64,000 nt of DNA from Terriglobia bacterium (GTDB taxonomy: Bacteria > Acidobacteriota > Terriglobia > 20CM-2-55-15): the NCBI GenBank assembly GCA_965198225.1, contig CBDAOY010000005.1, positions 704,001 to 768,000 on the forward strand, in the 5' to 3' direction. This document shows, one piece after another, positions 3,956 to 58,427 of this stretch. The number at the start of each line of letters is the position of its first letter. Within the stretch, counting starts at the first letter, position 1. Under the pieces are notes generated by a model, which was not told the origin of the DNA, ran no database searches, and saw only the letters and a program-made list of their open reading frames with translations. A program made the translations under genes and the position numbers.

Positions 3956-5227
3956 ATGAGCAAATCTGAAGACCTGTTCCAACGAGCGGAACGAGTAATG
4001 CCCGGCGGCGTCAATTCGCCTGTTCGCGCCTTCCGGGCTGTCGGCGGTAAGCCCGTCTTCATCGAGAGCGGGGAGGGACCGCGACTCCGGGATGTCGACG
4101 GAAACACTTACATCGACTACATCGGATCGTGGGGACCCTTGATTGCCGGGCATCGTCCACCCGCGGTGACGAAAGCCCTGGCGAGAATCCTGGACGAAGT
4201 CGGGACGTCTTTCGGCGCTCCCACTGCACCCGAGATCGAGCTGGCGGAACTGATCTGTGAGCTGCTGCCGTCCGTCCACAAGTTACGGCTCGTCAATTCC
4301 GGCACCGAGGCGACGATGAGCGCGATCCGTCTTGCCAGGGGTTTCACCGGACGGGACAAGATCGTCAAGTTCGATGGCTGCTACCACGGTCACGGCGACA
4401 GTCTCCTGGTTCGAGCCGGTTCCGGAGTCGCGACGTTGGGTCTGCCCGACAGTCCCGGTGTTCCACCCGGGCTGGCCGAACTGACACTGGTCATGCCATT
4501 CAACGATTCCGCCGCACTCGAGGGTTTGTTCCACCGAACGGGAGGCGAGATCGCCTGTGTCATCATCGAGCCGGTCGCGGGAAATATGGGCTGCGTCCCG
4601 CCGGAACCGGGCTATCTGGAACTCCTCCGAGAGCTGACCTTTCGGTCGGGAACGGTGTTGATCTTCGACGAAGTCATGACCGGATTCCGCGTGTCTCTCG
4701 GCGGTGCACAGAAGTTGTTCGGGATTCGGCCGGATCTTACCACCATGGGCAAGATCATCGGCGGCGGCCTGCCTGTGGGAGCCTACGGCGGTCGGGCCGA
4801 CATCATGGATCGAGTTGCGCCCGTCGGGCCGGTGTACCAGGCGGGGACTCTGTCAGGCAACCCCCTGGCGGTCGCGGCCGGGCTGGCCGCACTCGAAACG
4901 CTCAGATCGGAGAATCCCTACGATCGGCTCGAAGAGTTGAGTGCGCGCCTGGAGCGCGGGATCAATGAGACGGCAGTGGAGAAAGGAGCCCGAGTTGTCG
5001 TCAATCGAGTCGGTTCAATGCTGACCCTGTTCTTCAACGAGCAACCCGTCACGGACTTTGCGACCGCGAAGACCTCGGACACCGACCGCTTCTCGGAATT
5101 CCACCAGGCGATGCTCCGACACGGTGTGTACTGGCCCCCCTCTCAGTTTGAGGCGGCATTCGTGTCCGCAGCCCACACCGAAGCGGATATCGATGAGACG
5201 GTCGAAGCGATCAGAGAATCCATGTAG
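3956..5227 (+). CDS. hemL: Glutamate-1-semialdehyde 2,1-aminomutase
   Basis: [45 protein letters not shown]. Confidence 0.97.
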
Positions 5228-5248
5228 GTGCGGAGTAGTCAGTAGTCC

Positions 5249-5413
5249 GTAGGCCGTTATGGTGTCGCTTACCGACAATTTTGAGGGTGACTGGCGAGGA
5301 ATTGCCGCCCTTCATGTATGCCGTTGCGGTCAGATTCCTGTCAGGCACTGGAGATGCGTCGCCGGTTACCGACGAATCCCCTCCAGGCGAAACCACAACG
5401 GGTAACGGCCTAC
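5249..5413. repeat. MITE/REP-like element with GTAGGCCGTT terminal inverted repeats
   Basis: Ends GTAGGCCGTT / AACGGCCTAC, flanked by short tandem repeats; related copies at 1-150 and 18469-18610. Confidence 0.75.
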
Positions 5414-5416
5414 GGT

Positions 5417-6319
5417 CTACGGACTACGGACAACGTCCTCCGCACAGCGGAAGCCGACTGTCGTCGACCGGACTTCAGGGTCCGCGTAGCTGCGGAAGTG
5501 ATTCATGAGGTTGCGATCGTCGCTGTCGGACCAGCCGCCGCCTCGAATGATCTTGTACTTCCCGTCGGGCCCCTGAGGATTCTCGAGCGGGCTGACGCTG
5601 TAATAGTTGCGGTAGTACCAATCGTTGACCCACTCCCAGACGTTGCCCGACATGTCGTTGACACCGTACCCATTCGACGGGTATGAACCGACCGGGGCCG
5701 GACCGAAGGGATAGTTCGTGTGGGCCCGGTTTCCTGTCTTCGCGGCGATGCTGTCGTCGTTGACTTCGTATCCTTCCAGACCGAGCCCTTCGTCACCCCA
5801 CGGGAACTTCTTCCGGTCCAGACCACCCCGGGCCGCTTTCTCCCATTCGGCTTCCGTGGGTAACCGCTTACCCGCCGACGCGCAGTACGAGTCGGCTTCT
5901 TCCCAGCTGACGTTGTAGACCGGAAGGCGCTCGTCTCCGGGGGCGATCGCTCCCTTCGGCCATTGCCAGGGCTTCAACGAGCCGGTTGCATCGACGAACT
6001 TCGAGTACTCTGCGTTGGTGACTTCGTTCTGATCGATGAAAAACCCGTCCAGGTACACTCGATGGGCCGGCGTGTTGTCCTGCCGGTCCCGTTCGAACCA
6101 CCCGATCGCGTCGACCAGGAAGAAGTGCACCCTGCCCATCCAGAATTCCCCGGCAGGTACAAACTCCATCCCGTCCGGCGGGGTCGGAGGAGTTTGGGGT
6201 TCGCGTTCCGCGGGCTCGACCTCGGCAGGTTCAGCCGGCGGTGTCTGGGGTTCGGGGGTCTGTGGATACGCCGCGGAAGCGAACGTCAAGATCAGGAGAA
6301 CCGCAGGGAGTTGTCGCAT
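5417..6319 (-). CDS. Formylglycine-generating enzyme (SUMF1/FGE-sulfatase) domain protein, exported
   Basis: RLPTEAEWEKAARGG, DMSGNVWEW, RGGGW, GFRC motifs; signal peptide. Confidence 0.9.
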   Translation of the reverse strand: MRQLPAVLLILTFASAAYPQTPEPQTPPAEPAEVEPAEREPQTPPTPPDGMEFVPAGEFWMGRVHFFLVDAIGWFERDRQDNTPAHRVYLDGFFIDQNEVTNAEYSKFVDATGSLKPWQWPKGAIAPGDERLPVYNVSWEEADSYCASAGKRLPTEAEWEKAARGGLDRKKFPWGDEGLGLEGYEVNDDSIAAKTGNRAHTNYPFGPAPVGSYPSNGYGVNDMSGNVWEWVNDWYYRNYYSVSPLENPQGPDGKYKIIRGGGWSDSDDRNLMNHFRSYADPEVRSTTVGFRCAEDVVRSP

Positions 6320-37281: not shown

Positions 37282-39294
37282 CTACCATTCATACCGCAAG
37301 CCCAACCGGAAAATCCTCGGATTCAGGATCTGCGTTGCGCGGCCGAACCGCGGCACCGTGTTGCCGTTGCGATCCCGGACCAGGTTGCTGAAGGTTTCAA
37401 CTCCCAGGACGGTGTTGGCGTTGAAGATGTTGAACAGATCGAACATCGCCTGAACACTCTGGCGATCGCCGATCGCGAAAGTCTTCTCAAACCGGATGTT
37501 GGTCAGGTGGACGCTCGGGCGATGGTACGTTCCCTCGGGTTCCATGATGATGACCTGGCTGCCCTGCGCGAGACCCTGGGCGCTCGTGCAGTCTCCGTTC
37601 GTCACCGTCCGACAACGGGGATCGTCCGCTTCCCGTCGGAGCAGGTCCGGAGTGAACCGCACGCGCCGGTTGTACTCGACGCCTTTCTGGGCGTTGTAGG
37701 TACCCGATACCGAAATCCCTTTCGGCAGTTCGTATTGACCCAGTAGCTTGAACGACCACAGGTCTATGTGACGATTCCCGCCGTAGACCAGGTTGTTGGG
37801 GTCGGGTCCGACATCGAACGGATCGTTGCGTTTCGTCCAGTCGACACCCGTGATCATCATCCAACCGTTGCTCATCCGTTTTCGTGCACCGAACTCGATC
37901 GTCGAGAAGTGGCCGCCGCGGTCGAGATTCGTTACGAGGTTCTCCCCCGGGCGTGGTGATCGGGTTCGTTCGTAGATCGTGACCAATCGATCGTCGCCCG
38001 AGCCGACCGCTCCATCAGGCCCGCGATCCACCGCCTGAACGGGCCGGTAGGTCAGCGTGGGGTGGGCCTGGTCGATGCGGTCCCACAGGTTGTGTTGGAT
38101 TTTTCGGACAAAGTTCGCGTTCACCGCGAAATCCTGGAACAGTTCGTGTTCGATTCCTACCGTGTACTCGTCGGTGTACTGGTTCGTCAGATTCGGATCC
38201 ACGTCAGCGGGGTTCGGAGTGCCGGTGATCCGCTCGATGTTGGAGTTCGCGATCAGTTCGTGCGTGATCGGGAGGGTTCCATCCCAGGTGTACTGTGTCG
38301 TCACCGGGAGAGAATTCGGATTGCCGAGTTGCGCCACCCTGAAGCTCGTGATGTCGCTGAACCGGCCATAGCTGGCCTTCAGAGCTGTTCTCGTGTCGCC
38401 GAACACGTCGTAGACGAGGCTGATACGCGGCACGAGATCGTTGAACGTCGCGTAGTGGGTCCTGGGGTAGGTGATCTTTGTGGCGAAAGGGCCGGTTCCA
38501 GGATTCCCCTGTTCAGGTGCGAAGTTGGTGTAACGGTCGAATCGGAGCCCGAGGTTCAACGTGAGGCGGTTGTTCAGCTGCCACTTGTCCTGCACAAAAA
38601 AGTAGTTGTGGTACAGGGAGTTGTGGGACTTGAACGGTGTGGTTGTCGTCTGGAAAAAGTCGGGTACACCGCCTCTGGAAAAGAGCCAGATAGCGCCGAG
38701 TGTTCCCGGCGATGCGGGCGCCTCGTTCCAGGTGAACCGGGAGTCTTCCCACTGGAGGGCGTACCCCACCTTGACGTCGTGGTCGCCGGTGAAGTAACTC
38801 CAGTTCACGTTCCATTGCCAGCGGCGCTCCTGAGTGTGAAACGGGAATTGCAGCCCCCCCCGCTGGGCACCCGTGAACAGATCCCGCGTCGGCGTCTGGC
38901 TGACGTGAGACTTGGCGGAAACATTGACCCCAGTCGTGTTGGCGGAGACATCCAGAGTTGATCTACCGCTCAACATGGCCATCCACTGGAACTTGTACTT
39001 CCAGGCCCAGGCGTCCTGTTTTCTGGTCGACTCGAGGGTCCTGTTTTTTGCGCCCGGTCCGCTGCCACCGACGAACGGCTGGAACTTCCGGGTCGCCCCG
39101 CCGCTGAAAACCAGCGAATGGTCCGGGCTGATCTGGTGGTTGAGCTTCAGGGTGTAGTTCTGGAGCCGGGTCGTGAAGGTCCCTCCCGGCGTGAGGTCGT
39201 TCTGCAGGACCTGGGTCTGTAGAGCCGAGTACTGATCTCGAACCGAGACGAACCACCACAACTTGTCCCGGACGATGGGGCCTCCGGCATTGCC
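37282..39294 (-). pseudogene. 3' part of an Oar-like TonB-dependent receptor, cut by a group II intron
   Basis: 'GGPIVRDKLWWF', 'FVQDKWQLNNRLTLNLGLRFD', 'PRIFRLGLRYEW'; 5' part not found in the window. Confidence 0.88.
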
Positions 39295-39454
39295 GTAGAG
39301 TCGACGACTGGCGCGGTGGCGGTAGGCAAAGGGGGTAGCTGTTGCCGGTGGCTTTCGCCGATTCCGGTGCCTCACTCCTCGCCGTGGCTTCGTTTCCAGT
39401 CGCCGCTCATCGAACCGGACATGCGGATTTCCCGCATCCGGCTCTCGGACGAGA

Positions 39455-40795
39455 TCATGCCTTCGCCCACGGAAAGCTCGCCGTACGCGGCGCAAGATGC
39501 GTGAGCCCGTAATCGGACCAGAGCCGCTCGGACGGGAAGCGCACGTGTTTCCCGGTCCGCACCTTGTGCTTACGGCAGAGCCACTGGCGCGGCCGCCGGG
39601 TCGCGTGTTGATCAATCGCCTTGTAGGCCGGGCGGACCTGTCCCAGGATGAAATAGTTCGCCCAACCGATCAGCAACCGGTTGAGGCGTCCCACTACGAC
39701 TCCCGACGGCAGGAGCACGTGGCGCGGCGCGGTCAACTCGCTCACACGACGGCAGATGCTCTGGACGCTTTCCCGGCTCGGATGTGTGCCTATGTAGGCG
39801 GCACCCGTACCCGGCCGGTAGTTGCAACCGATCCGGTAGCCGAGGAACGTCATCGATTCCTCCGGCACCCGGCAGCAGCGGGTCTTCTCAACGTTCATCG
39901 CCAACTTCAGACGTTTTATCAGGGCTTCGACCGCCGCTAGCATCACCGCTGCCGGCGCGCGACCGAGAACCGCGAAGTCATCCGCGTAGTTGACGATTTC
40001 CGCCTTGAAGTGCCGGGCGTAGCCCAGCACCTTCCAGCCCAGAATGAAGCGCCGCATGTAGATGTTGCTGAACAGCGGCGAGATCGGAGACCCTTGCGGG
40101 GTCCCCTTCCGCTCGTGACGCGCCCGGTTCGTGCGGCGGCGACCGCCGCGCCCGTCGTCCTCTTCCACCGCCATCTCCAGCCACGCCTTGACCCAGCCCA
40201 ACAGCCGCCCGTCGCTCACACGCCGGGCGATGGACTTCATCAGGTCCGCGTGCGGAATCTGGCCGAAGTAGTCCGACAGGTCGGCGTCCACCACCTCCCG
40301 GTGGCCCGTCGTCAGCAGCCGATGCACGCGCCTGACTGCGTCATGCGCGTCTCGGCCCGGCCGGTACGCATACTGCTCCGGTTGCAGGTCGGCTTCGAAG
40401 ATCGGCGATAACACCAGCATCGCCGCCGTCTGCACCACCCGATCCCGGAGACACGGAATGCCCAACGGCCGGAACTTCCCTCGTTGCTTCTTCGGGATGA
40501 GAACCTGCCGAACCGCATGCGGCCGATAGGTCCCTTCCTTCAGGTCCCGCGCCAGTGCTCCCAGCCACCGGTCCACCCCGAACGCATCGATGTCCGCGAC
40601 CGTCTCGCCGTCCACCCCGGCCGCGCCGCCGTTGCGGCGCACGGCCTGCCAGGCGACTGCGAGCACGTCGTCGCGCCACACCTTGTCGCTCAGAGAGTAG
40701 AACCGGAAGCCCAGAGCTTCCTTCGCTTTCGCATGTAGCGCCGTCTGGAGTCGCTGAACTCTCTCCGAGGCTGTTAGGCTCTCGCCAGTCCTCAT
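39455..40795 (-). CDS. ltrA: Group II intron reverse transcriptase/maturase
   Basis: GAAGVDG, RPLGIP, GTPQGSPISPL, YADD; no endonuclease domain. Confidence 0.93.
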   Translation of the reverse strand: MRTGESLTASERVQRLQTALHAKAKEALGFRFYSLSDKVWRDDVLAVAWQAVRRNGGAAGVDGETVADIDAFGVDRWLGALARDLKEGTYRPHAVRQVLIPKKQRGKFRPLGIPCLRDRVVQTAAMLVLSPIFEADLQPEQYAYRPGRDAHDAVRRVHRLLTTGHREVVDADLSDYFGQIPHADLMKSIARRVSDGRLLGWVKAWLEMAVEEDDGRGGRRRTNRARHERKGTPQGSPISPLFSNIYMRRFILGWKVLGYARHFKAEIVNYADDFAVLGRAPAAVMLAAVEALIKRLKLAMNVEKTRCCRVPEESMTFLGYRIGCNYRPGTGAAYIGTHPSRESVQSICRRVSELTAPRHVLLPSGVVVGRLNRLLIGWANYFILGQVRPAYKAIDQHATRRPRQWLCRKHKVRTGKHVRFPSERLWSDYGLTHLAPRTASFPWAKA

Positions 40796-40972
40796 GTCCC
40801 TTCCTCCGTCATGCGCTGCTCTCGAACTGAGGTCCCTTCCCTCCACCGGCATTACCTGATGGGATGGACTCCTCCTTGATGACTGAGTCGGCATCGTAGT
40901 GCCAAAGTCATTGTGAAGCCTCGCGATGGTGCGGGCTAAACACGAGGACGTGTAAACAAGAAGGAGTCCGAG

Positions 40973-42007
40973 ATGAAGAGTAAAACGATCGCAGTGGATC
41001 TGGCAAAGAATGTTTTCGAGATTGGGATTTCCGACCGCCCCGGGCAGATGACGAAGACATACCGTTTAAGCCGGGGAAAGTTCTTGTCGTTTTTTGCGAA
41101 TCAGGAGCTGGCGACGGTCGTGATGGAAGCCTGCAGTGCCGCCCATCACTGGGGACGAGAGATCCAGAAACTGGGGCACACAGTGGTACTGATTTCACCG
41201 CAGTATGTCCGGCCCTACGTACCGAGGAGTAAGACGGATCGGGCGGATGTAAAAGGGTTGCTGGAGGCCCACCGGAATGCCGATATTCGGGCGGTACCCA
41301 TTAAGACGGTGGCGCAACAGCAACTCACCGCCCTGCACCGCATCCGGTCGACCTGGATGCGGACCCGGACGGCGCGCATCAACATGGTGCGGGGGCTGCT
41401 GGGAGAGTTTGGGCTCGTGCTGCCGACGGGAGCCCGGCGGCTGGTGCCCGGAGTCATGGGGTTGATCGAAGATGCGGATGTTGAGATCCCCATGACCGTA
41501 CGCGTCATGTTCTCGGAAGTGTGCACCGAAATCCGCGAGCTGGAGGCACGCATTCAATCGGTGGAGCGGGAGTTGGAAGCCCTGGCCCGTCAGATGCCCG
41601 AGGTGGCCCGTCTGCGCTCGATCCCTGGAATCGGGCTGTTGACTTCCACGGCGATGGTAGGTTTTGTCGGTGACCCCCGACGGTTTCGATCCTGTCGCCA
41701 CTTTGCCAGTTATCTGGGACTCACCCCGCGTGAGCGTTCGAGCGGAAACCGGCGTCGGCTGGGAGCGATCAGCAAACAAGGCAACGTCTACCTGCGGATG
41801 CTGCTCATACACGGTGGCCGCACTCTGCTATGGAGTGCGCATCGAAAAGGGGCGCAACCTTCGGCTCTGCAGAAATGGGGTCTCCGTCTCCACACACTCC
41901 GCGGGCACAACACGGCCACGGTTGCTTTAGCCAACAAACTGGCCCGCACGGTTTGGGCCGTCTGGACACAGGACACGGCGTACGAGGCTGACCGACGGGC
42001 GGCCTGA
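40973..42007 (+). CDS. IS110 family DEDD recombinase/transposase
   Basis: AVDLAK, VMEAC, KTDRAD, 'GLTPRERSSG', 'VALANKLAR'. Confidence 0.95.
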   Translation: MKSKTIAVDLAKNVFEIGISDRPGQMTKTYRLSRGKFLSFFANQELATVVMEACSAAHHWGREIQKLGHTVVLISPQYVRPYVPRSKTDRADVKGLLEAHRNADIRAVPIKTVAQQQLTALHRIRSTWMRTRTARINMVRGLLGEFGLVLPTGARRLVPGVMGLIEDADVEIPMTVRVMFSEVCTEIRELEARIQSVERELEALARQMPEVARLRSIPGIGLLTSTAMVGFVGDPRRFRSCRHFASYLGLTPRERSSGNRRRLGAISKQGNVYLRMLLIHGGRTLLWSAHRKGAQPSALQKWGLRLHTLRGHNTATVALANKLARTVWAVWTQDTAYEADRRAA

Positions 42008-42034
42008 CACCATGACTGTAGGAACATCCTTTCA

Positions 42035-42230
42035 GTAGACTGCGACGACGTTCGAGTTGATGACGTACCGGTCAGACCGGCGCGGGGAAACGCCGGAGAA
42101 GCCGTGGCCCCTGGAGGCCGTTTACCCGGTTGGCACCCCGCGCGCGAATTTCATCATGGCCCGGAACTCAAACGTTCCATTCGAGAGGCCGAAGATACGG
42201 ATGCAGTCGATCTGTCACTCAACTCGAAAA
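42035..42230 (+). ncRNA. Predicted bridge/seekRNA of element 1
   Basis: Structured region after the transposase with loops matching target and donor; RNA ends approximate. Confidence 0.75.
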
Positions 42231-42648
42231 TCAAATATCAGGATGCTGAAAAGAATCTTCGGGAAAAGGATATGGGACAGCTGCGCCTACTTGACAGGAG
42301 GAGTCCAGATACGGCTTTCTTGGTACTGCGGACCTCTCCGCCACCCTGTCGGCCCAACCTGACCCTCGCGGGCTGTCGGTTGGCGCGTGCCACGCCACCG
42401 GCAGGGCTTCCCGTGTTGCGTCCAATCCCCTCTTCCATACATGCCACCGCCCAATACCCCGGCGGAACCAGTCGGTGCTCGCGTCGCTCGCTTCCCGACC
42501 GCTGGCAGCCTTCCCCGTTTCAACGGCGGGTCGGCTTCCGCATTGTGCGTTTCGATGGAGTGGACGCCCCCGCTCCCCGGCGGCAGAATGGGCCGGGTCA
42601 GCAGAACGCACAAGGGGTGCGTTCAGAACACGAGAGAGGGAGGGATAC

Positions 42649-43695
42649 ATGGGCAAGGTGATCACCATCATCGGCATCGACATTTCAAAGAGGTACTTCC
42701 AACTGCATGGAGCCACGGCAAGCGGTGAGCCTGTGCTGCGCAGGCAGCTCACGCGCCCGAAGCTACTCGAGTTCCTCGCCAAGCAGCCTGTCTGCCGGGT
42801 CGTGATGGAAGTGTGCGGCAGCGCCCATCATTGGGGGCGGATGATCCAGGAGATCGGCCACGAGGTCCGCCTGATTCCCCCGATGTATGTGAAGCCGTAC
42901 GTCAAGAGGCAGAAGAATGACGCCAACGACGCGGGAGCGATCGTCGAGGCGGCCCAGCGGCCGACGATGCGGTTCGTGGCCGTGAAGACCGAGGAGGAGC
43001 AGGCACGATCGGTGGTGTTCCGGGCCCGGGCACTGCTGGTGCGCCAGCGGACACAGACGATCAACGCGCTGCGGGGTCATCTCGCGGAGTTTGGACTCGT
43101 CGCTCCGCTTGGGACCCACAACGTCGGGAGGCTGGAGGAGGTGTTCGCGGAGCGTGAAGAGTGTTTCCCGGCGCTGGTGCCTCCCGCCATACGCCGCCTC
43201 ATCGAGCGGACCCACGATCTGGATGCGGAGATCGATGAGCTGGACCGGGAGATCCGTCGCATCGTGAGGGAAGATGAGGCGCTCGGGCGCCTGATGACGA
43301 TTCCAGGGGTGGGAGAGCTCACGGCAATGGCGGTGCACGCGTTCGCGCCACCGATGGAGAGCTTCCGTAATGGACGTGACTTTGCGGCATGGGTCGGGAT
43401 CACGCCGCGTGAATCCTCGACGGGTGGCCGCCAACGGCTGGGGGGGATCACAAAGATGGGACAGCGCGACATCCGGAGGCTCCTGTACCTGGGAGCGACG
43501 GCGGTCATCTCGAGTGCCATCCGGCGGAGGGAGGTCACCGATCCCTGGCTTGGCCGGATGCTGGACGAAAAGCCGAGGAAGGTGGTTGCGGTGGCTCTGG
43601 CCAACAGGATGGCACGCATCATCTGGGCCATGACGGTGAAGGAGGAGAGCTACAGGGCACGGGGAATGACAAAGGCCGTTGCGCCTGCAGCGTAG
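42649..43695 (+). CDS. IS110 family DEDD recombinase/transposase
   Basis: GIDISK, VMEVCG, KNDANDA, 'GITPRESSTGG', 'VALANRMAR'. Confidence 0.95.
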   Translation: MGKVITIIGIDISKRYFQLHGATASGEPVLRRQLTRPKLLEFLAKQPVCRVVMEVCGSAHHWGRMIQEIGHEVRLIPPMYVKPYVKRQKNDANDAGAIVEAAQRPTMRFVAVKTEEEQARSVVFRARALLVRQRTQTINALRGHLAEFGLVAPLGTHNVGRLEEVFAEREECFPALVPPAIRRLIERTHDLDAEIDELDREIRRIVREDEALGRLMTIPGVGELTAMAVHAFAPPMESFRNGRDFAAWVGITPRESSTGGRQRLGGITKMGQRDIRRLLYLGATAVISSAIRRREVTDPWLGRMLDEKPRKVVAVALANRMARIIWAMTVKEESYRARGMTKAVAPAA

Positions 43696-43839
43696 GGTTG
43701 CGAGTCAGATCAGTGGAGCGAAGAAGGGTCGGCGAGATCAGAAACGCGGAGAAGAGAGAGGAAATCGTCCGGCTGGCGGCCTGGGCGGATGGACACGGGC
43801 CACGGAGGTTCCAACTGGAGAGTGCAAGCAGGACGTCGG

Positions 43840-44005
43840 ACAAGGTAGGGGCAAACGGTCGACAAGACGGGATCGGAAAACCCAGTAGGCCTCGAAGGGC
43901 CATCGAGCCCGTCGTTTCGATTTGGATCCGATCTCACGAACACCATACGGGCCCGCGGCCAGCAAGTGCCGCATCAAGAGGCCGCACATACGACCGTACC
44001 TGACC
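43840..44005 (+). ncRNA. Predicted bridge/seekRNA of element 2
   Basis: Loops AGGCCTCG/CGTTTCGA match the target; CCATACG/CACATACGA match the donor junction; RNA ends approximate. Confidence 0.78.
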
Positions 44006-44255
44006 TGAATGCCACCGATCCTCGGTTCGAAGTCAGGCTTGCCAACCAGGGGGGCGTCCACATACGAGGCCTGCTCGGCGTTTACTCGCGTTGTGGCCTG
44101 TGTGGTCGCTGAGCCGCCCGAGGCGGCCCTTTGTCATCGGAGTGCTTCAGACGATGTTGTTACCTCCACCATCCGCTCCGATTGCTACCGACTGGAGCGA
44201 CAGTTGCCGGGCGGGATTCGCACCCGCTGAGGATTGGCGCCTTCTCACGGCGCGG

Positions 44256-44738
44256 CTTGAGCCCTCGGCTCCTCATGAAGCTGTAGAGGGTCGTACGGGA
44301 CACGCCCGTGAGCTTGGCGATGGCGGTCTTGGAAACCCCCAGCTTGAGGAAGCGCCGGATGTCGTCCTCCTTGCCGTTGAGCCGTGAGACGCCCAGCGAG
44401 CCTTTCGGGCGCCCGAGCTTCCGGCCCGAGGATCTGGCCTTGGCGAGGGCGTCGAGGATGGCAACGATCTGACCCAGCGACCGACCAAGCCGGGAGAGTT
44501 CGCTGACGACCAAACGGTCGCCGCGCTGGAGAACGTTCATCAGCTCGTCGAGCCGTCGGCGCTTTTCGGAAGCCTATCCAGAGGCGGTCGCCTCGATGAA
44601 ATCGTCGATGCGGAAGTCGTGTTTGCGTGCGTACTCGAGGATGGCGAGGCGCTGGCTGCGCACGTCCTGCTGCGCGGTCGAGACCCTCAAATAGGCAACG
44701 GTTTTCACGGCCTGACCATGGAATGCGGCTTCTGGCAT
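44256..44738 (-). pseudogene. Serine resolvase/invertase remnant
   Basis: AYLRVST, ELSRLGRS, LGRPKG, C-terminal HTH; in-frame stop at 44574 and an apparent internal deletion. Confidence 0.85.
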
Positions 44739-53635: not shown

Positions 53636-53949
53636 GGTTTTGATCTGTTGTTAAACTCTCACCGGAATATTCCGGTTTTTTCCGCTGCACATCCATTCCC
53701 GCGCCCAGGGCTCGGAGCTTCTCTCGCCTCCGGACCGCGTCTTTGAGGAGATTTCGTCTGGACCTCGGGGCGCTATCATCCTGGACCCGGAGCAATTGTG
53801 CGCACTACCCCGGCTTTTCAAGAGTCCTCACTTGAAGAGTCAAACCTGTTTCACGATGCCGGCACTTTGCCAGCTACCGGTGACCGCTGCTGCGGGAGAA
53901 TTCTGGCGGGAACCCCGGAGGGCTGGGCCGGATCCGTAAGGGCGGGAAT

Positions 53950-54325
53950 TCCTATCTACCGGATGTTCTTGTGGTCGGCGCACGGACACAGTATCACGTC
54001 GGCGACTCTGCTGAAGTGGAGGCTCCGCATTCATGAAGAATGCGGGCATAACCAGGCGGCGGTGGCGCTCGCCAACAAGCTGTGCCGACGATCTGCGCCG
54101 CCTGGAAGCGCGATTCCGACTATCCGGAGGCCAGACCGGATTTCGTTGCAGCAGGCCGCACTGACGTTCCTGTGCTGGCGTATCGGTCGGTCGGCGCGGG
54201 CACACGCCGACAAACTTCAGGCCCCTTCGGGGCTGTCATTTGACGCCTGGCGCCGCGTGCGACCTTGCATCGTGGCCTGAAATCCTACAATTCCACTGGA
54301 GCGGCTGGAGCTGCGGATGCAGTCG
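53950..54325 (+). pseudogene. Degraded IS110/IS1111 element: transposase C-terminus plus non-coding scaffold
   Basis: 'GHNQAAVALANKL'; 54178-54325 aligns with 42063-42209. Confidence 0.75.
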
Positions 54326-54330
54326 TCGGC

Positions 54331-54672
54331 CAATACCTCGGCCACGCTGCGCTGAAGGGCCCGATCTTGAACACAGGGCACGCCCAGGGGACGTTTCTCC
54401 TGCTTGCCGGGCTTGGGGATATACACCCGCCGAATCGGCGGAGCGCGATATCCCTTCTGGTGAACAGACTGGAGCATTGGCTCCACCCAGACTCCGAATT
54501 CCTCCTTCGCCTCCGGTACCCTCTGACCATCACATCCGGGAGCCGTGTTGCGGGGCACTTGACACAGGTTCTTCCACACACGCTCTCGGGTGACATGATG
54601 CGCCAGTGACGTGAACCGGAGCTTTGGCTCACTCCGAGCTTTCGCCGCTATTCGTTCCAGTTTCGTTTCCAT
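54331..54672 (-). pseudogene. Truncated intron B reverse transcriptase
   Basis: METKLERIAAKA...RFTSLAHH, APGCDG, RRVYIPKPGK, RPLGVP; stops before YADD. Confidence 0.88.
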
Positions 54673-55704: not shown

Positions 55705-56167
55705 TATCAGCCAGTCTGACTTCCGACAGGCCTTCGGGTCTTCCTCGCGTTGTTGGCTTGTCCAACCCTACAAGCTCCGCTTGAACCTGACGGATCTCCC
55801 TTGTTCCCATGAAATCCTTGGTTGCATGCCGGCGGTACGAACCCCGGAAGGTTGCCATTGCGTGCCCTGCGATTCCGCCTTCCCCGGCGGTACGAACCCC
55901 GGAAGCACCCCAGGGCACGCCATTGCGTGCCCTGCGATTCCGCCTTCCCCCAGCGACAGGGTCGGCTACTTCAACCACGTTCGATCAACCACGTTCGATT
56001 TCGGGGCTATCTTTCCGTTCACTGGTGTTCCGGCCTACTCCCTCCCTGTCTACGCTTCGCAGTGTCCGTCACCGACCACCACGCAAGACTCGGTACGTGG
56101 CTGCCGGCTAGGCTCTGCCACGGCCGCCATCTCAGGCGACTGGATCTCATGCGCTTGCAAGGCGCAA

Positions 56168-58050
56168 CGCTCATCGAACCGGACATGCAGATTTCCCGCA
56201 TCCGGCTCTCGGACGAGATCATGCCTTCGCCCACGGAAAGCTCGCCGTACGCGGCGCAAGATGCGTGAGCCCGTAATCGGACCAGAGCCGCTCGACCGGG
56301 AAGCGCACGTGTTTCCCGGTCCGCACCTTGTGCTTACGGCAGAGCCACTGGCGCAGCCGCCGAGTTGCGTGCCGGTCAATCGCCTCGTAGGCCGGGCTGA
56401 CCTGTCCCAGGGTGAAGTAGTTCGCCCAACCGGTCAGCAACCGGTTGAGGCGTCCCACTACGACCTCCGGCGGCAGGAGCGCGTGACGCGGCGTGGTCAA
56501 CTCGCTCACACGACGGCAGATGCTCTGGACGCTTTCCCGGCTCGGACGTGTGCCTATGTAGGCGGCACCCGTGTCCGGCCGGTAGTTGCAACCAATCCGG
56601 TAGCCGAGGAACGTCATCGATTCCTCCGGCACCCGGCAGCAGCGGGTCTTCTCAACGTTCATCGCCAACTTCAGACGTTTTATCAGGGCTTCGACCGCCG
56701 CTAGCATTACCGCTGCCGGCGCGCGACCGAGAACCGCGAAGTCATCCGCGTAGTTGACGATTTCCGCCTTGAAGTGCCGGGCGTAGCCCAGCACCTTCCA
56801 GCCCAGAATGAAGCGCCGCATGTAGATGTTGCTGAACAGCGGCGAGATCGGAGACCCTTGCGGGGTCCCCTTCCGCTCGTGACGCGCCCGGTTCGTGCGG
56901 CGGCGACCGCCGCGCCCGTCGTCCTCTTCCACCGCCATCTCCAGCCACGCCTTGACCCAGCCCAACAGCCGCCCGTCGCTCACGCGCCGGGCGATGGACT
57001 TCATCAGGTCCGCGTGCGGAATCTGGCCGAAGTAGTCCGACAGGTCGGCGTCCACCACCTCCCGGTGGCCCGTCCTCAGCAGCCGATGCACGCGCCTGAT
57101 TGCGTCATGCGCGTCTCGGCCCGGCCGGTACGCATACTGCTCCGGTTGCAGGTCGGCTTCGAAGATCGGCGATAACACCAGCATCGCCGCCGTCTGCACC
57201 ACCCGATCCCGGAGACACGGAATGCCCAACGGCCGGAACTTCCCTCGTTGCTTCTTCGGGATGAGAACCTGCCGAACCGCATGCGGCCGATAGGTCCCTT
57301 CCTTCAGGTCCCGCGCCAGTGCTCCCAGCCACCGGTCTACCCCAAGCGCCTCGATGTCTCCGACCGTCTCGCCGTCCACCCCGGCCGCGCCGCCGTTGCG
57401 GCGCACGGCCTGCCAGGCGACTGCGAGCACGTCGTCGCGCCACACCTTGTCGCTCAGAGAGTAGAACCGGAAGCCCAGAGCTTCCTTCGCTTTCGCATGT
57501 AGCGCCGTCTGGAGTCGCTGAACTCTCTCCGAGGCTGTTAGGCTCTCGCCAGTCCTCATGTCCCTTCCTCCGTCATGCGCTGCTCTCGAACTGAGGTCCC
57601 TTCCCTCCACCGGCATTACCCGGCTTCCCTGGTACTGCGGACCTCTCCGCCACCCTGTCGGCCCAACCTGACCCTCGCGGGCTGTCGGTTGGCGCATGCC
57701 ACGCCACCGGCAGGGCTTCCCGTGTTGCGTCCATCCCCCCCTTCCACACGTGCCGCCGCTACTACCCCGGCGGAACCGGTCGGTGCTCGCGTCGCTCGCT
57801 TCCCGACCGCTGGCAGCCTTCCCCGTATTCCGGGCGGATCGGCTTCCGCATCGCTTCGTTACGAGGCCTGCGCAGCGTTCACATCGTTGCGGCCCGCGTG
57901 GTCGCTGAACCGCCCAGGGCGGCCCTTTGTCATCGGAGTGCTTCAGCCGATGTCGTTACCTCCATCGTCCGCTCCGACTGCTACCGGCTGGAGCGACAGT
58001 TGCCGGGCGGGGTTCGCACCCGCTGGGGAATGGCGCCTTTCACGGCGCAC
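56168..58050 (-). mobile_element. Group II intron A copy 2 (class F-like), domain VI displaced
   Basis: 5' GTGCG at 58050; domain V at about 56175-56208; near-identical to copy 1. Confidence 0.92.
56219..57559 (-). CDS. ltrA: Group II intron reverse transcriptase/maturase
   Basis: Same motifs as 39455-40795, including YADD. Confidence 0.93.
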   Translation of the reverse strand: MRTGESLTASERVQRLQTALHAKAKEALGFRFYSLSDKVWRDDVLAVAWQAVRRNGGAAGVDGETVGDIEALGVDRWLGALARDLKEGTYRPHAVRQVLIPKKQRGKFRPLGIPCLRDRVVQTAAMLVLSPIFEADLQPEQYAYRPGRDAHDAIRRVHRLLRTGHREVVDADLSDYFGQIPHADLMKSIARRVSDGRLLGWVKAWLEMAVEEDDGRGGRRRTNRARHERKGTPQGSPISPLFSNIYMRRFILGWKVLGYARHFKAEIVNYADDFAVLGRAPAAVMLAAVEALIKRLKLAMNVEKTRCCRVPEESMTFLGYRIGCNYRPDTGAAYIGTRPSRESVQSICRRVSELTTPRHALLPPEVVVGRLNRLLTGWANYFTLGQVSPAYEAIDRHATRRLRQWLCRKHKVRTGKHVRFPVERLWSDYGLTHLAPRTASFPWAKA

Positions 58051-58427
58051 CAAAATCCAACGCTAAGGGTTGTCGCCTAGTGTCCTTAGCGGTCTCAATG
58101 CGGCTCCGTGGAGGTCCTCGTCCAAGTCGAAGCGGGTACTTCCCGTAGGGGTTGAGGTGGCCGTAGAGCGCTGCCGGCGTTGGTCTGAAGCCAAGTCTGG
58201 AGTTCGGGCTCCTGAGAATCGGAGGTTTTGGCGGCTCGTGGATACCCGGAGATAGACGGCGATGGCCCGGAGGTTCACCCGACCATTACTCTGGGGCTCA
58301 CAGAAACCCCAAAGAATCACGACATAGCCCAATTATTTCAACGAACCCTTCAAGTCGGACACTGCCTGATCGCTTCAGGTCCAGCAGCCCTTAGCGTTGG
58401 ATTTTGCACCGTTGCTATCGTAACCCC
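58051..58427. mobile_element. Tn3-family miniature element with a resolvase scrap
   Basis: 38-bp inverted repeat GGGGTTACGATAGCAACGGTGCAAAATCCAACGCTAAG (58427-58390); inner 17 bp of the partner repeat at 58051-58067; 'VYLRVST' fragment. Confidence 0.8.

Follow-up and report, generated by a model that had tools for sequence, protein, structure and literature searches.

Two IS1111-type elements in one group II intron copy

We analyzed a 64,000-nt stretch of a Terriglobia bacterium genome (contig CBDAOY010000005.1 of assembly GCA_965198225.1; hereafter, the window, whose numbering is used unless a position is labeled otherwise) that carries a group II intron interrupted by two insertion sequences (ISs) of the IS1111 type, here named IS1 and IS2. 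Rfam models placed three group II introns in the window, and the interrupted one, copy A, measures ~1994 nt once both insertions are subtracted (Table 1). We set the limits of the two elements by alignment with uninterrupted sister introns, including copy B in the same window (55850-58060), and with other copies. Both elements lie antisense to the intron and are separated by 241 bp of intron sequence (42312-42552). Contigs from four public sequencing runs cross both sites in their empty form, joining position 40856 to 42312 (1455 nt skipped) and position 42552 to 44065 (1512 nt skipped, with 3 nt that fit either side). A sequence-only reading of this DNA had previously described two different antisense IS1111-type elements 241 bp apart, and the sister alignment and contig joints reproduced that description exactly.

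The intron family was recognized by covariance models at both ends of copy A, with a D1D4-4 match at 44086-44229 and a domain V/VI match at 39295-39446 (82.8 bits for RF02003 and 45.2 bits for RF00029). The last 109 nt of the intron (39403 down to 39295) form a 3′ tail that also occurs in at least eight other places in the genome. The IS2 site falls within domain I, 22 nt past the D1D4-4 match. RNAalifold analysis of the 5′ 454 nt of the intron proved too rough to delimit domains II to IV, and two placements are stated here: IS2 is in domain I, and IS1 is located just upstream of the AUG of the intron-encoded protein (IEP). The sequence-only reading had put both insertions in the 5′ domains of the ribozyme.

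The open reading frame (ORF) of this protein, a reverse transcriptase (RT)/maturase, matched TIGR04416 over residues 76-443 (302.6 bits; cut-off, 300) and was 97.7% identical at the nucleotide level to that of sister intron B. Its first 13 codons (40857-40894) are IS1 sequence and its native part stops at 40856; in the sister copies, the frame opens 26 codons upstream of the IS1 site. Because the conserved part of the IEP starts only at residue 76 and an in-frame AUG is present 5 nt downstream of the IS1 site, we count the RT core as intact. The earlier statement that both insertions spare the RT ORF is thus true of the conserved protein, with the upstream 26 codons of the frame cut off. The 5′ boundary of copy A departs from the GUGYG consensus, since intron nt 1-2 (44255-44254) are CC rather than GU (boundary, CCGCG), while eight sister copies have GUGCG or GUGCA; copy A cannot use a canonical 5′ splice site. 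The exons on its two sides are mismatched as well: the upstream one (44256-44540, (-) strand) corresponds to the helix-turn-helix C terminus of a resolvase-like ORF, and the downstream one (37282-39294, (-) strand) is a TonB-dependent-receptor-like beta-barrel ORF.

Both elements carry the marks of IS1111 members as described in PMC11187229: subterminal inverted repeats of 11-13 bp, terminal extensions that measure 7 nt (left) and 3 nt (right), and a long stretch of non-coding DNA that follows the transposase gene. IS1 ends in TGATGGGA..GATA and has 11-bp subterminal inverted repeats (40865-40875 and 42297-42307), with extensions of 8 nt and 4 nt and with TG, not CG, at its left junction. IS2 has 12-bp subterminal inverted repeats (42560-42571 and 44050-44061), and its left and right extensions measure 7 nt and 3 nt, respectively. 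Downstream of the transposase gene, IS1 has 304 nt of non-coding sequence (42008-42311), compared to 116 nt upstream, and IS2 has 369 nt (43696-44064), compared to 96 nt upstream. Across copies, each element occupies the same nucleotide in the same orientation, with no target duplication for IS1 and a junction that is ambiguous by 3 nt for IS2 (CGA, common to the element start and the right flank). The two transposases are 36.7% identical to each other and match the NF033542 profile (IS110 family RNA-guided transposase; cut-off, 140 bits) at 308 bits over profile positions 1-342 of 343 (IS1) and at 319 bits over nearly the whole profile (IS2). Their distant relatives in the PDB are ISCro4 and IS621 for IS1 (E-values of 2.5e-11 and 3.8e-11, respectively), with E-values of 7.9e-14 and 5.7e-11 for the PDB relatives of the IS2 protein. 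We assign both elements, as distantly related members, to the IS1111 branch of the IS110 family.

Table 1. Coordinates of the intron, the two inserted elements and their putative guide RNAs (a slash marks the insertion point)
Feature	Position	Strand	Basis or description
Group II intron copy A	39295..44255	(-)	Rfam D1D4-4 and Intron_gpII; sister-copy alignment
Intron 5′ segment, nt 1-191, part of domain I	44065..44255	(-)	Rfam D1D4-4 at 44086-44229
Intron segment between the elements, 241 nt, intron nt 192-432	42312..42552	(-)	Sister-copy alignment
RT/maturase (IEP) ORF, open frame of 479 aa	39455..40894	(-)	Pfam RVT_1 and GIIM
Intron domain V	39412..39444	(-)	Rfam D5 models; position fixed by sequence
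IS1, IS1111-type, 1455 bp, after intron nt 432	40857..42311	(+)	Sister alignment; contig joint skipping 1455
IS1 transposase, 344 aa	40973..42007	(+)	DEDD_Tnp_IS110 and Transposase_20 (PF01548 and PF02371)
IS1 seekRNA-like scaffold	42080..42145	(+)	Non-coding region conserved among relatives apart from two patches
IS1 guide 1, GAAGCCG	42098-42104	(+)	Complement of top-strand right flank CGGCTTC
IS1 guide 2, TTACCCGG	42122-42129	(+)	Equals TTACC/CGG over the insertion point
IS2, IS1111-type, 1512 bp, after intron nt 191	42553..44064	(+)	Sister alignment; contig joint skipping 1512
IS2 transposase, 348 aa from the first ATG within the element	42649..43695	(+)	DEDD_Tnp_IS110 and Transposase_20 (PF01548 and PF02371)
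IS2 seekRNA-like scaffold	43866..43937	(+)	Covariation; consensus fold
IS2 guide 1, AGGCCTCG	43887-43894	(+)	Complement of right flank CGAGGCCT
IS2 guide 2, CGTTTCGA	43913-43920	(+)	Equals CGTTT/CGA
IS1 target site in the intron			..GGCATTACC/CGGCTT..
IS2 target site in the intron			..GCGTTT/CGAGGCCT..
IS1 copies within the IS5-like element	G000 C5:838646-840100; C4:355363-356817

Candidate guide RNAs and the intron motifs that they match

The long non-coding region of each element contains a seekRNA-like scaffold with two guide patches that match the two strands of the insertion site (Table 1). In both elements, the patch that complements the top strand comes first, 5′ of the one that matches the bottom strand, with a 14-nt hairpin between them; in the target, the two matches share 3 nt. 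Order and overlap agree with the published arrangement of IS1111 seekRNAs, in which a top-strand complement precedes a bottom-strand match and the target segments of the two overlap (PMC11187229). A search of positions 39200-44400 with Rfam (E-value of ≤1) returned intron families only and no bridge or seek RNA family.

Next to these matches stands comparative evidence from relatives of each element. For IS1, other genomes of the same family provided five relatives (70-77% amino acid identity) with the same ends and a conserved non-coding region; only the guide patches vary among them, and each matches the flanks of its own element. For IS2, a set of 68 related loci was examined; 23 of 69 sequences had both ends at an element-like distance; two loci without anchors and one truncated at a contig end were set aside, which left 20 loci (18 unique). 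The guides in this set had a mean score of 11.9 of 15 against their own targets, compared to 6.1 (standard deviation, 2.2) for the targets of other elements, and in 10,000 permutations no value as high as the observed one arose, although kinship makes these elements non-independent and the permutation statistics are somewhat overstated. An alignment of 24 scaffold sequences gave a consensus fold with an 8-bp outer stem, a 4-bp inner stem and a distal hairpin, with both guides placed in an internal loop and compensatory changes in 3 of 16 pairs; it replaced single-sequence folds, which were weak (z of −1.35 and −2.74). While one 8-mer match would not be significant by itself, the comparative evidence is, and it supports the view that the guides of both elements are programmed for conserved intron sequence. 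The proposal of the sequence-only reading that each element carries guides for its own site is thus upheld by complementarity and by covariation in relatives. The target motifs are also retained in homologous introns of other genomes (68-91% identical), where TTACCCGG was found exactly in 15 of 23 and TTTCGAGGCC in 18 of 25.

It might be argued that this is chance nesting in a graveyard of mobile DNA and that the guide matches are coincidental, as the contig is very rich in mobile elements and, by our estimate, one 8-mer match within 300 nt of non-coding DNA is not rare. Coincidence would, however, have to produce the same two-patch architecture at homologous scaffold positions in both elements, strong covariation in two sets of relatives (0 of 10,000 permutations for IS2; five relatives for IS1) and the filling of an identical nucleotide position in several copies and in another genome (see below), and we regard it as hardly credible.

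Occupied and empty sites in this genome and in others

Further analysis of the genome revealed four copies of IS1, all 100% identical. Two of these are located at the same nucleotide of two intron copies, and the other two interrupt the DDE transposase gene of an IS5-like element that measures 1.1 kb and is present in seven copies (Table 1). IS2 has three copies (100%, 99.5% and, in a 5′-truncated copy, 98.3% identical), all with their right junction at the same intron position; in both complete copies, the left junction is identical too. The 5′ exons differ among the three IS2-bearing intron copies, and introns with IS1 only, IS2 only, both or neither are all present. The suggestion made earlier that a conserved, multicopy intron serves as a landing pad fits these data well, since the same sites are filled in several copies with different 5′ exons. 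A third IS1111-type element of the genome lies outside introns.

The distribution of empty sites is informative about target choice. The 13-mer at the IS2 site, CGTTTCGAGGCCT, has three empty copies in the genome, all within this intron family, and perfect sites are intronic in six of six cases; B-type intron copies, which have one mismatch to the 13-mer (CGTTACGAGG, CGTTCCGAGG), are never occupied. For the IS1 target TTACCCGGCTT, five of seven empty sites are intronic. Among the IS5-like copies, the five empty ones read TTGCC/CGGGCT, with one mismatch to IS1 guide 2, while the two occupied ones belong to a TTACC subfamily that matches guide 2 perfectly, and one of these has CGGCT on its right, lengthening the match to guide 1. 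Thus, both in the intron and in the IS5-like element, the occupied sites are the better-matching ones, i.e., occupancy follows the guide match. The occupied IS5-like copy on C5 also has three private changes within 9 nt of the junction (expected, ~0.2), a clustering that we cannot fully explain. We considered whether the flanks at C5:838646 had been converted toward the intron site and rejected this: the G>A change at −3 is common to both occupied copies and, therefore, marks the subfamily, and one of the three private changes (at −9) is not toward the intron. Choice of the best-matching IS5-like copies appears to be the simpler reading of these flanks.

Two degraded IS1-like sequences were also noted. 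In the window, a remnant at 53857-54325 ((+) strand) retains transposase residues 241-325 (~55% amino acid identity) and part of the 3′ non-coding region; it abuts, in antisense, an IEP fragment of intron C (54328-54651, (-) strand; see below), with its right end missing and no clean insertion junction. Elsewhere, at G000 C6:561402-561465, GCCGGGTAA, which is the IS1 target core in reverse complement, comes after a solo IS1-like right end (82% identical over 56 nt).

On this evidence, IS1 and IS2 are very probably seekRNA-guided IS1111 elements that are programmed for group II intron motifs and have landed there several times. In the mechanism we propose, each element would produce a transposase of the DEDD type and would use the long non-coding region at its 3′ side to make a seekRNA-like guide RNA. 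The two patches in the internal loop of this RNA would base-pair with the two strands of the target DNA, to the left and right of a CG(G/A) crossover point. IS1 would be programmed for TTACC/CGGCTT, 5 nt upstream of the first AUG kept in the IEP frame, and IS2 for CGTTT/CGAGGCCT in domain I. The RNA would be made and loaded, insertion would proceed via a circular intermediate and would inactivate the intron, and the many near-identical intron copies would offer repeated landing sites, probably at low cost to the host.

Several observations weigh against this explanation. Guide 1 of IS1 pairs with only 6 nt of the site in copy A (7 nt in B-type copies), and the full 11-mer TTACCCGGCTT also occurs at two sites outside introns that carry no insertion. 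Donor-binding guides were sought as well, but the matches to the abutted ends were only 6 nt long and not convincing. In a sample of 400 other genomes of the phylum, with only two candidates scored per genome, we found neither of the two IS/intron junctions. Furthermore, the flanks of the occupied intron copies are near-identical (0-3 mismatches over 189-1450 nt), and no direct evidence supports the RNA, the circles or current activity.

The similarity of the flanks leads to a different account, in which each element inserted once and the loaded intron then spread by homologous recombination, gene conversion or segmental duplication. Apart from the flanks, the contig is dense with nested mobile elements, and copy A itself is chimeric: its 3′ flank is 100% identical to that of the C6 copy over 604 nt while its 5′ flank is different, so that the locus looks like a recombination product between intron copies. 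This account is harder to reconcile with three different 5′ exons on the three IS2-bearing copies, with the existence of all four combinations of IS1 and IS2, and with occupation of the same site in another genome, in introns with different exons. Moreover, IS1 has moved to a second, non-homologous target, where the occupied copies match the guide better than the empty ones do. The IS2 copies have also diverged more (8/1512 and 19/1141) than their intron flanks (0/430 and 1/189), although this difference is statistically weak. As a general explanation, we consider a single insertion followed by spread improbable, if by no means negligible; because of the near-identical flanks, some of the occupied copies may nevertheless have arisen by recombination between intron copies.

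We then asked where relatives of the two elements reside. Among loci of the IS1 clade in five related genomes, none of 11 had an Rfam group II match or an IEP hit within 1.5 kb of flank on each side; a 64%-identical IS1 relative lies outside introns too, and none of the short right-end-like matches from the phylum sample, checked in three genomes, is in an intron. The IS2 clade is wide, with its closest relatives in metagenome-assembled genomes (MAGs) titled Longimicrobiales and others in Proteobacteria, and has uniform ends (CGATGGAGTGGACGCCCCC .. GGGGGCGTCCACATA, then CG). No IEP hit was found beside any of its 68 loci. Two of the 68, L022 and L023, from one MAG and with a transposase of 86% amino acid identity, occupy the homologous intron site: they are flanked by an 80%-identical copy of the 5′ 191 nt of the intron, with position and antisense orientation unchanged, and are the only two of the 20 IS2-clade genome loci scanned with an Rfam D1D4-4 match beside the element. 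Their guides are the same as those of IS2 except for one base that follows the target. The two introns have ~560 nt of 5′ sequence and a domain V-like piece in common, differ in their 5′ exons and contain no IEP; they look like ORF-less derivatives. A scan of metagenomes with a 17-nt right-end motif yielded 48 stretches, of which 27 had an IS-like context with 21 distinct right flanks, and one metagenome contig (L170) has the same IS2/intron junction, confirmed by Rfam (1 of 20 scanned). All three intron loci of the IS2 clade (L022, L023 and L170) represent one sublineage at one site. The 5′ region of the intron itself was present in 33 of 400 other genomes sampled from the phylum (34 of 401 with this genome).

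Three further observations concern the IS2 relatives. In L021, L040 and L051, all from one Longimicrobiales MAG, one IS2-like copy is interrupted, 31 nt in from its left end, by another IS2-like element (locus position ~2867-2930), at an identical position in the three loci, which suggests a relative programmed against its own kin. L023 carries an extra insertion of ~1.5 kb between the transposase gene and the seekRNA region (~4100-5590) that is absent from its twin L022. In a Paracoccaceae MAG, L033 combines guides of the L031 type with a site of the L034/L037 type (7/9 and 4/6 matches), pointing either to an off-target insertion or to recombination between co-resident elements.

The sequence-only reading had proposed a system of IS clades that are specialized hyperparasites of retroelements and in which insertion and precise excision reversibly switch splicing or retrohoming. 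In its favor, two unrelated IS1111 lineages have targeted conserved motifs of the same intron family in one genome, the IS2 sublineage holds the intron target across genomes, IS1 is located 5 nt upstream of the IEP AUG, and 1.5 kb of foreign sequence in domain I should, from general knowledge of group II ribozymes, block folding. At the level of the clades, however, the relatives live mostly elsewhere (no intron signal at 11 of 11 IS1-clade loci and at 18 of 20 and 19 of 20 IS2-clade loci), and both the IS5-like transposase gene and the third IS1111-type element provide non-intron locations in the genome itself. The intron target thus recurs in the IS2 sublineage, in another genome and in one metagenome contig, and specialization of the clades on retroelements is not supported (0/11, 2/20 and 1/20 loci). 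Neither clade is specialized on introns, and IS1 is not specialized even as an element, because it also uses a half-matching site in another IS.

The state of the intron copies speaks against a switch as well. Besides copy A, with CC at its 5′ splice site, the two other assessable occupied copies are damaged: the IS2-bearing copy on C4 lacks the 3′ part of the IEP, and the copy at C5:608366 has been invaded by a second intron 8 nt after domain V. Conversely, the sole family copy without any insertion here (C6:5959-7952, L089) has a frameshifted IEP, with no ORF of at least 150 amino acids and a tblastn match that splits at residue 422, while the doubly interrupted copy A retains an open IEP frame. 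In runs X1, X2, X5 and X15, from four studies, we found no contig evidence of excision or circles and no back-joint among the joints listed; the contig joints over the elements are no proof of excision, because empty sister copies explain all of them. In the same runs, the summed depth of the intron over 40600-44300 reached thousands, compared to tens to hundreds for the ISs, and the forms assembled from an RNA library were the joined (empty) ones. Empty sites dominate in the public runs examined, but as contig data these depths give no more than a hint of a large excess of empty intron copies. These depths are summed over organisms, and we did not use their differences as evidence of expression. 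Finally, excision of IS621 mostly leaves the donor site intact, according to a 2026 preprint (10.64898/2026.08.31.748434), which argues against a toggle. We found no evidence for the switch and judge specialized clades with reversible switching to be very unlikely.

A further reading, and the most novel one, is that group II introns are a recurrent and evolutionarily stable harbor for RNA-guided ISs, in which two unrelated IS1111 lineages would have converged on hard-to-change motifs of the ribozyme or IEP leader and the IS2 sublineage would have followed the family from genome to genome, including its ORF-less derivatives. We offer this idea tentatively and think it, on balance, rather doubtful. 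If it were true, the IS2 sublineage would be a true hyperparasite that sterilizes intron copies and limits intron spread. The reading that the data support best is ordinary IS1111 biology with an unreported target, in which two lineages were independently programmed for multicopy intron DNA and one sublineage, that of IS2, has kept the intron target across at least two organisms.

The intron family is also a host for another intron. Intron C (5′ end, UUGCGCC; Rfam D1D4-6; own IEP ~28% identical) is nested 8 nt past domain V in B-type host copies, in the window at 55884-56167 and beyond ((-) strand) and at G000 C5:606912, C5:812467 and C6:839762. The 109-nt 3′ tail of the host intron recurs further downstream of intron C in other copies, and solo copies of intron C come after a GAGCG exon end. 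Intron-in-intron nesting by intron C thus has a fixed position.

Significance and relation to known systems

A literature search that combined IS1111/IS110 with group II introns returned no title or abstract start on such targeting, though supplementary target tables might list one. The word intron does not occur in the available text of the seekRNA paper (PMC11187229), and a 2026 atlas preprint mentions IS1111/IS110 and group II introns only separately in the part at hand. Thus, we did not find the group II intron in print as a target class of IS1111 elements. Its conserved ribozyme DNA would join the known landing sites of these elements, namely repetitive extragenic palindromic (REP) elements, attC sites and transposon ends. 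The locus also presents three layers of parasitism, with an intron in a gene, an intron in an intron and an IS in an intron, and points intron biologists to a possible cause of the inactivation of intron copies.

As an example of seekRNA target choice, the system is clean and natural: the guides can be read from the sequence and covary with their targets in relatives, and within one genome they set occupied sites apart from unoccupied ones, since IS2 occupies perfect 13-mers whereas one-mismatch variants are empty, and IS1 is found only in the better-matching subfamily of the IS5-like element. Such natural pairs of near-targets provide data on mismatch tolerance for recombinase engineering. 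Half-match off-target insertion has been reported for IS621 (10.64898/2026.08.31.748434), and the use of a half-matching IS5-like site by IS1 fits this behavior.

The closest known systems are the IS1111 seekRNA elements ISEc11, ISPa11, ISKpn4 and ISPst6 (Siddiquee et al. 2024, PMC11187229). These share with IS1 and IS2 the DEDD transposase, subterminal repeats, the downstream non-coding region, guide order and overlap, natural reprogramming among close relatives and a preference for repeated sequences. The 7-nt and 3-nt extensions are alike in IS2, while IS1 differs, with 8-nt and 4-nt extensions and TG at its left junction. The target is different, being conserved DNA that here encodes a group II intron ribozyme.

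Compared to the bridge recombinases of the IS621/IS110 type (8wt6, 9t56), the elements belong to the same protein superfamily (E-values of ~1e-11 to 1e-14) and have internal-loop guides that read both strands around a short core. In contrast to that type, the non-coding region is downstream rather than upstream of the transposase gene, and the strand matches come in the opposite order. We found no bridge RNA of the two-loop kind with a recognizable donor-binding loop, and neither element shows the IS621-like arrangement of an upstream RNA with separate target and donor loops.

Nested group II introns offer another parallel, in that the host intron of this study is parasitized by two kinds of element, intron C and the ISs; nesting there proceeds by retrohoming through exon-binding-site pairing and not by a guide-RNA DEDD recombinase. 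Lastly, the IS1111-attC group and IS4321/IS5075 are IS1111 members that target integron attC sites and the inverted repeats of the Tn21 family. As in those cases, an RNA-guided IS resides inside another mobile element at one conserved position and in one orientation, but the host here is a retroelement, and the site lies in a catalytic RNA or an IEP leader instead of a recombination site or terminal repeat.

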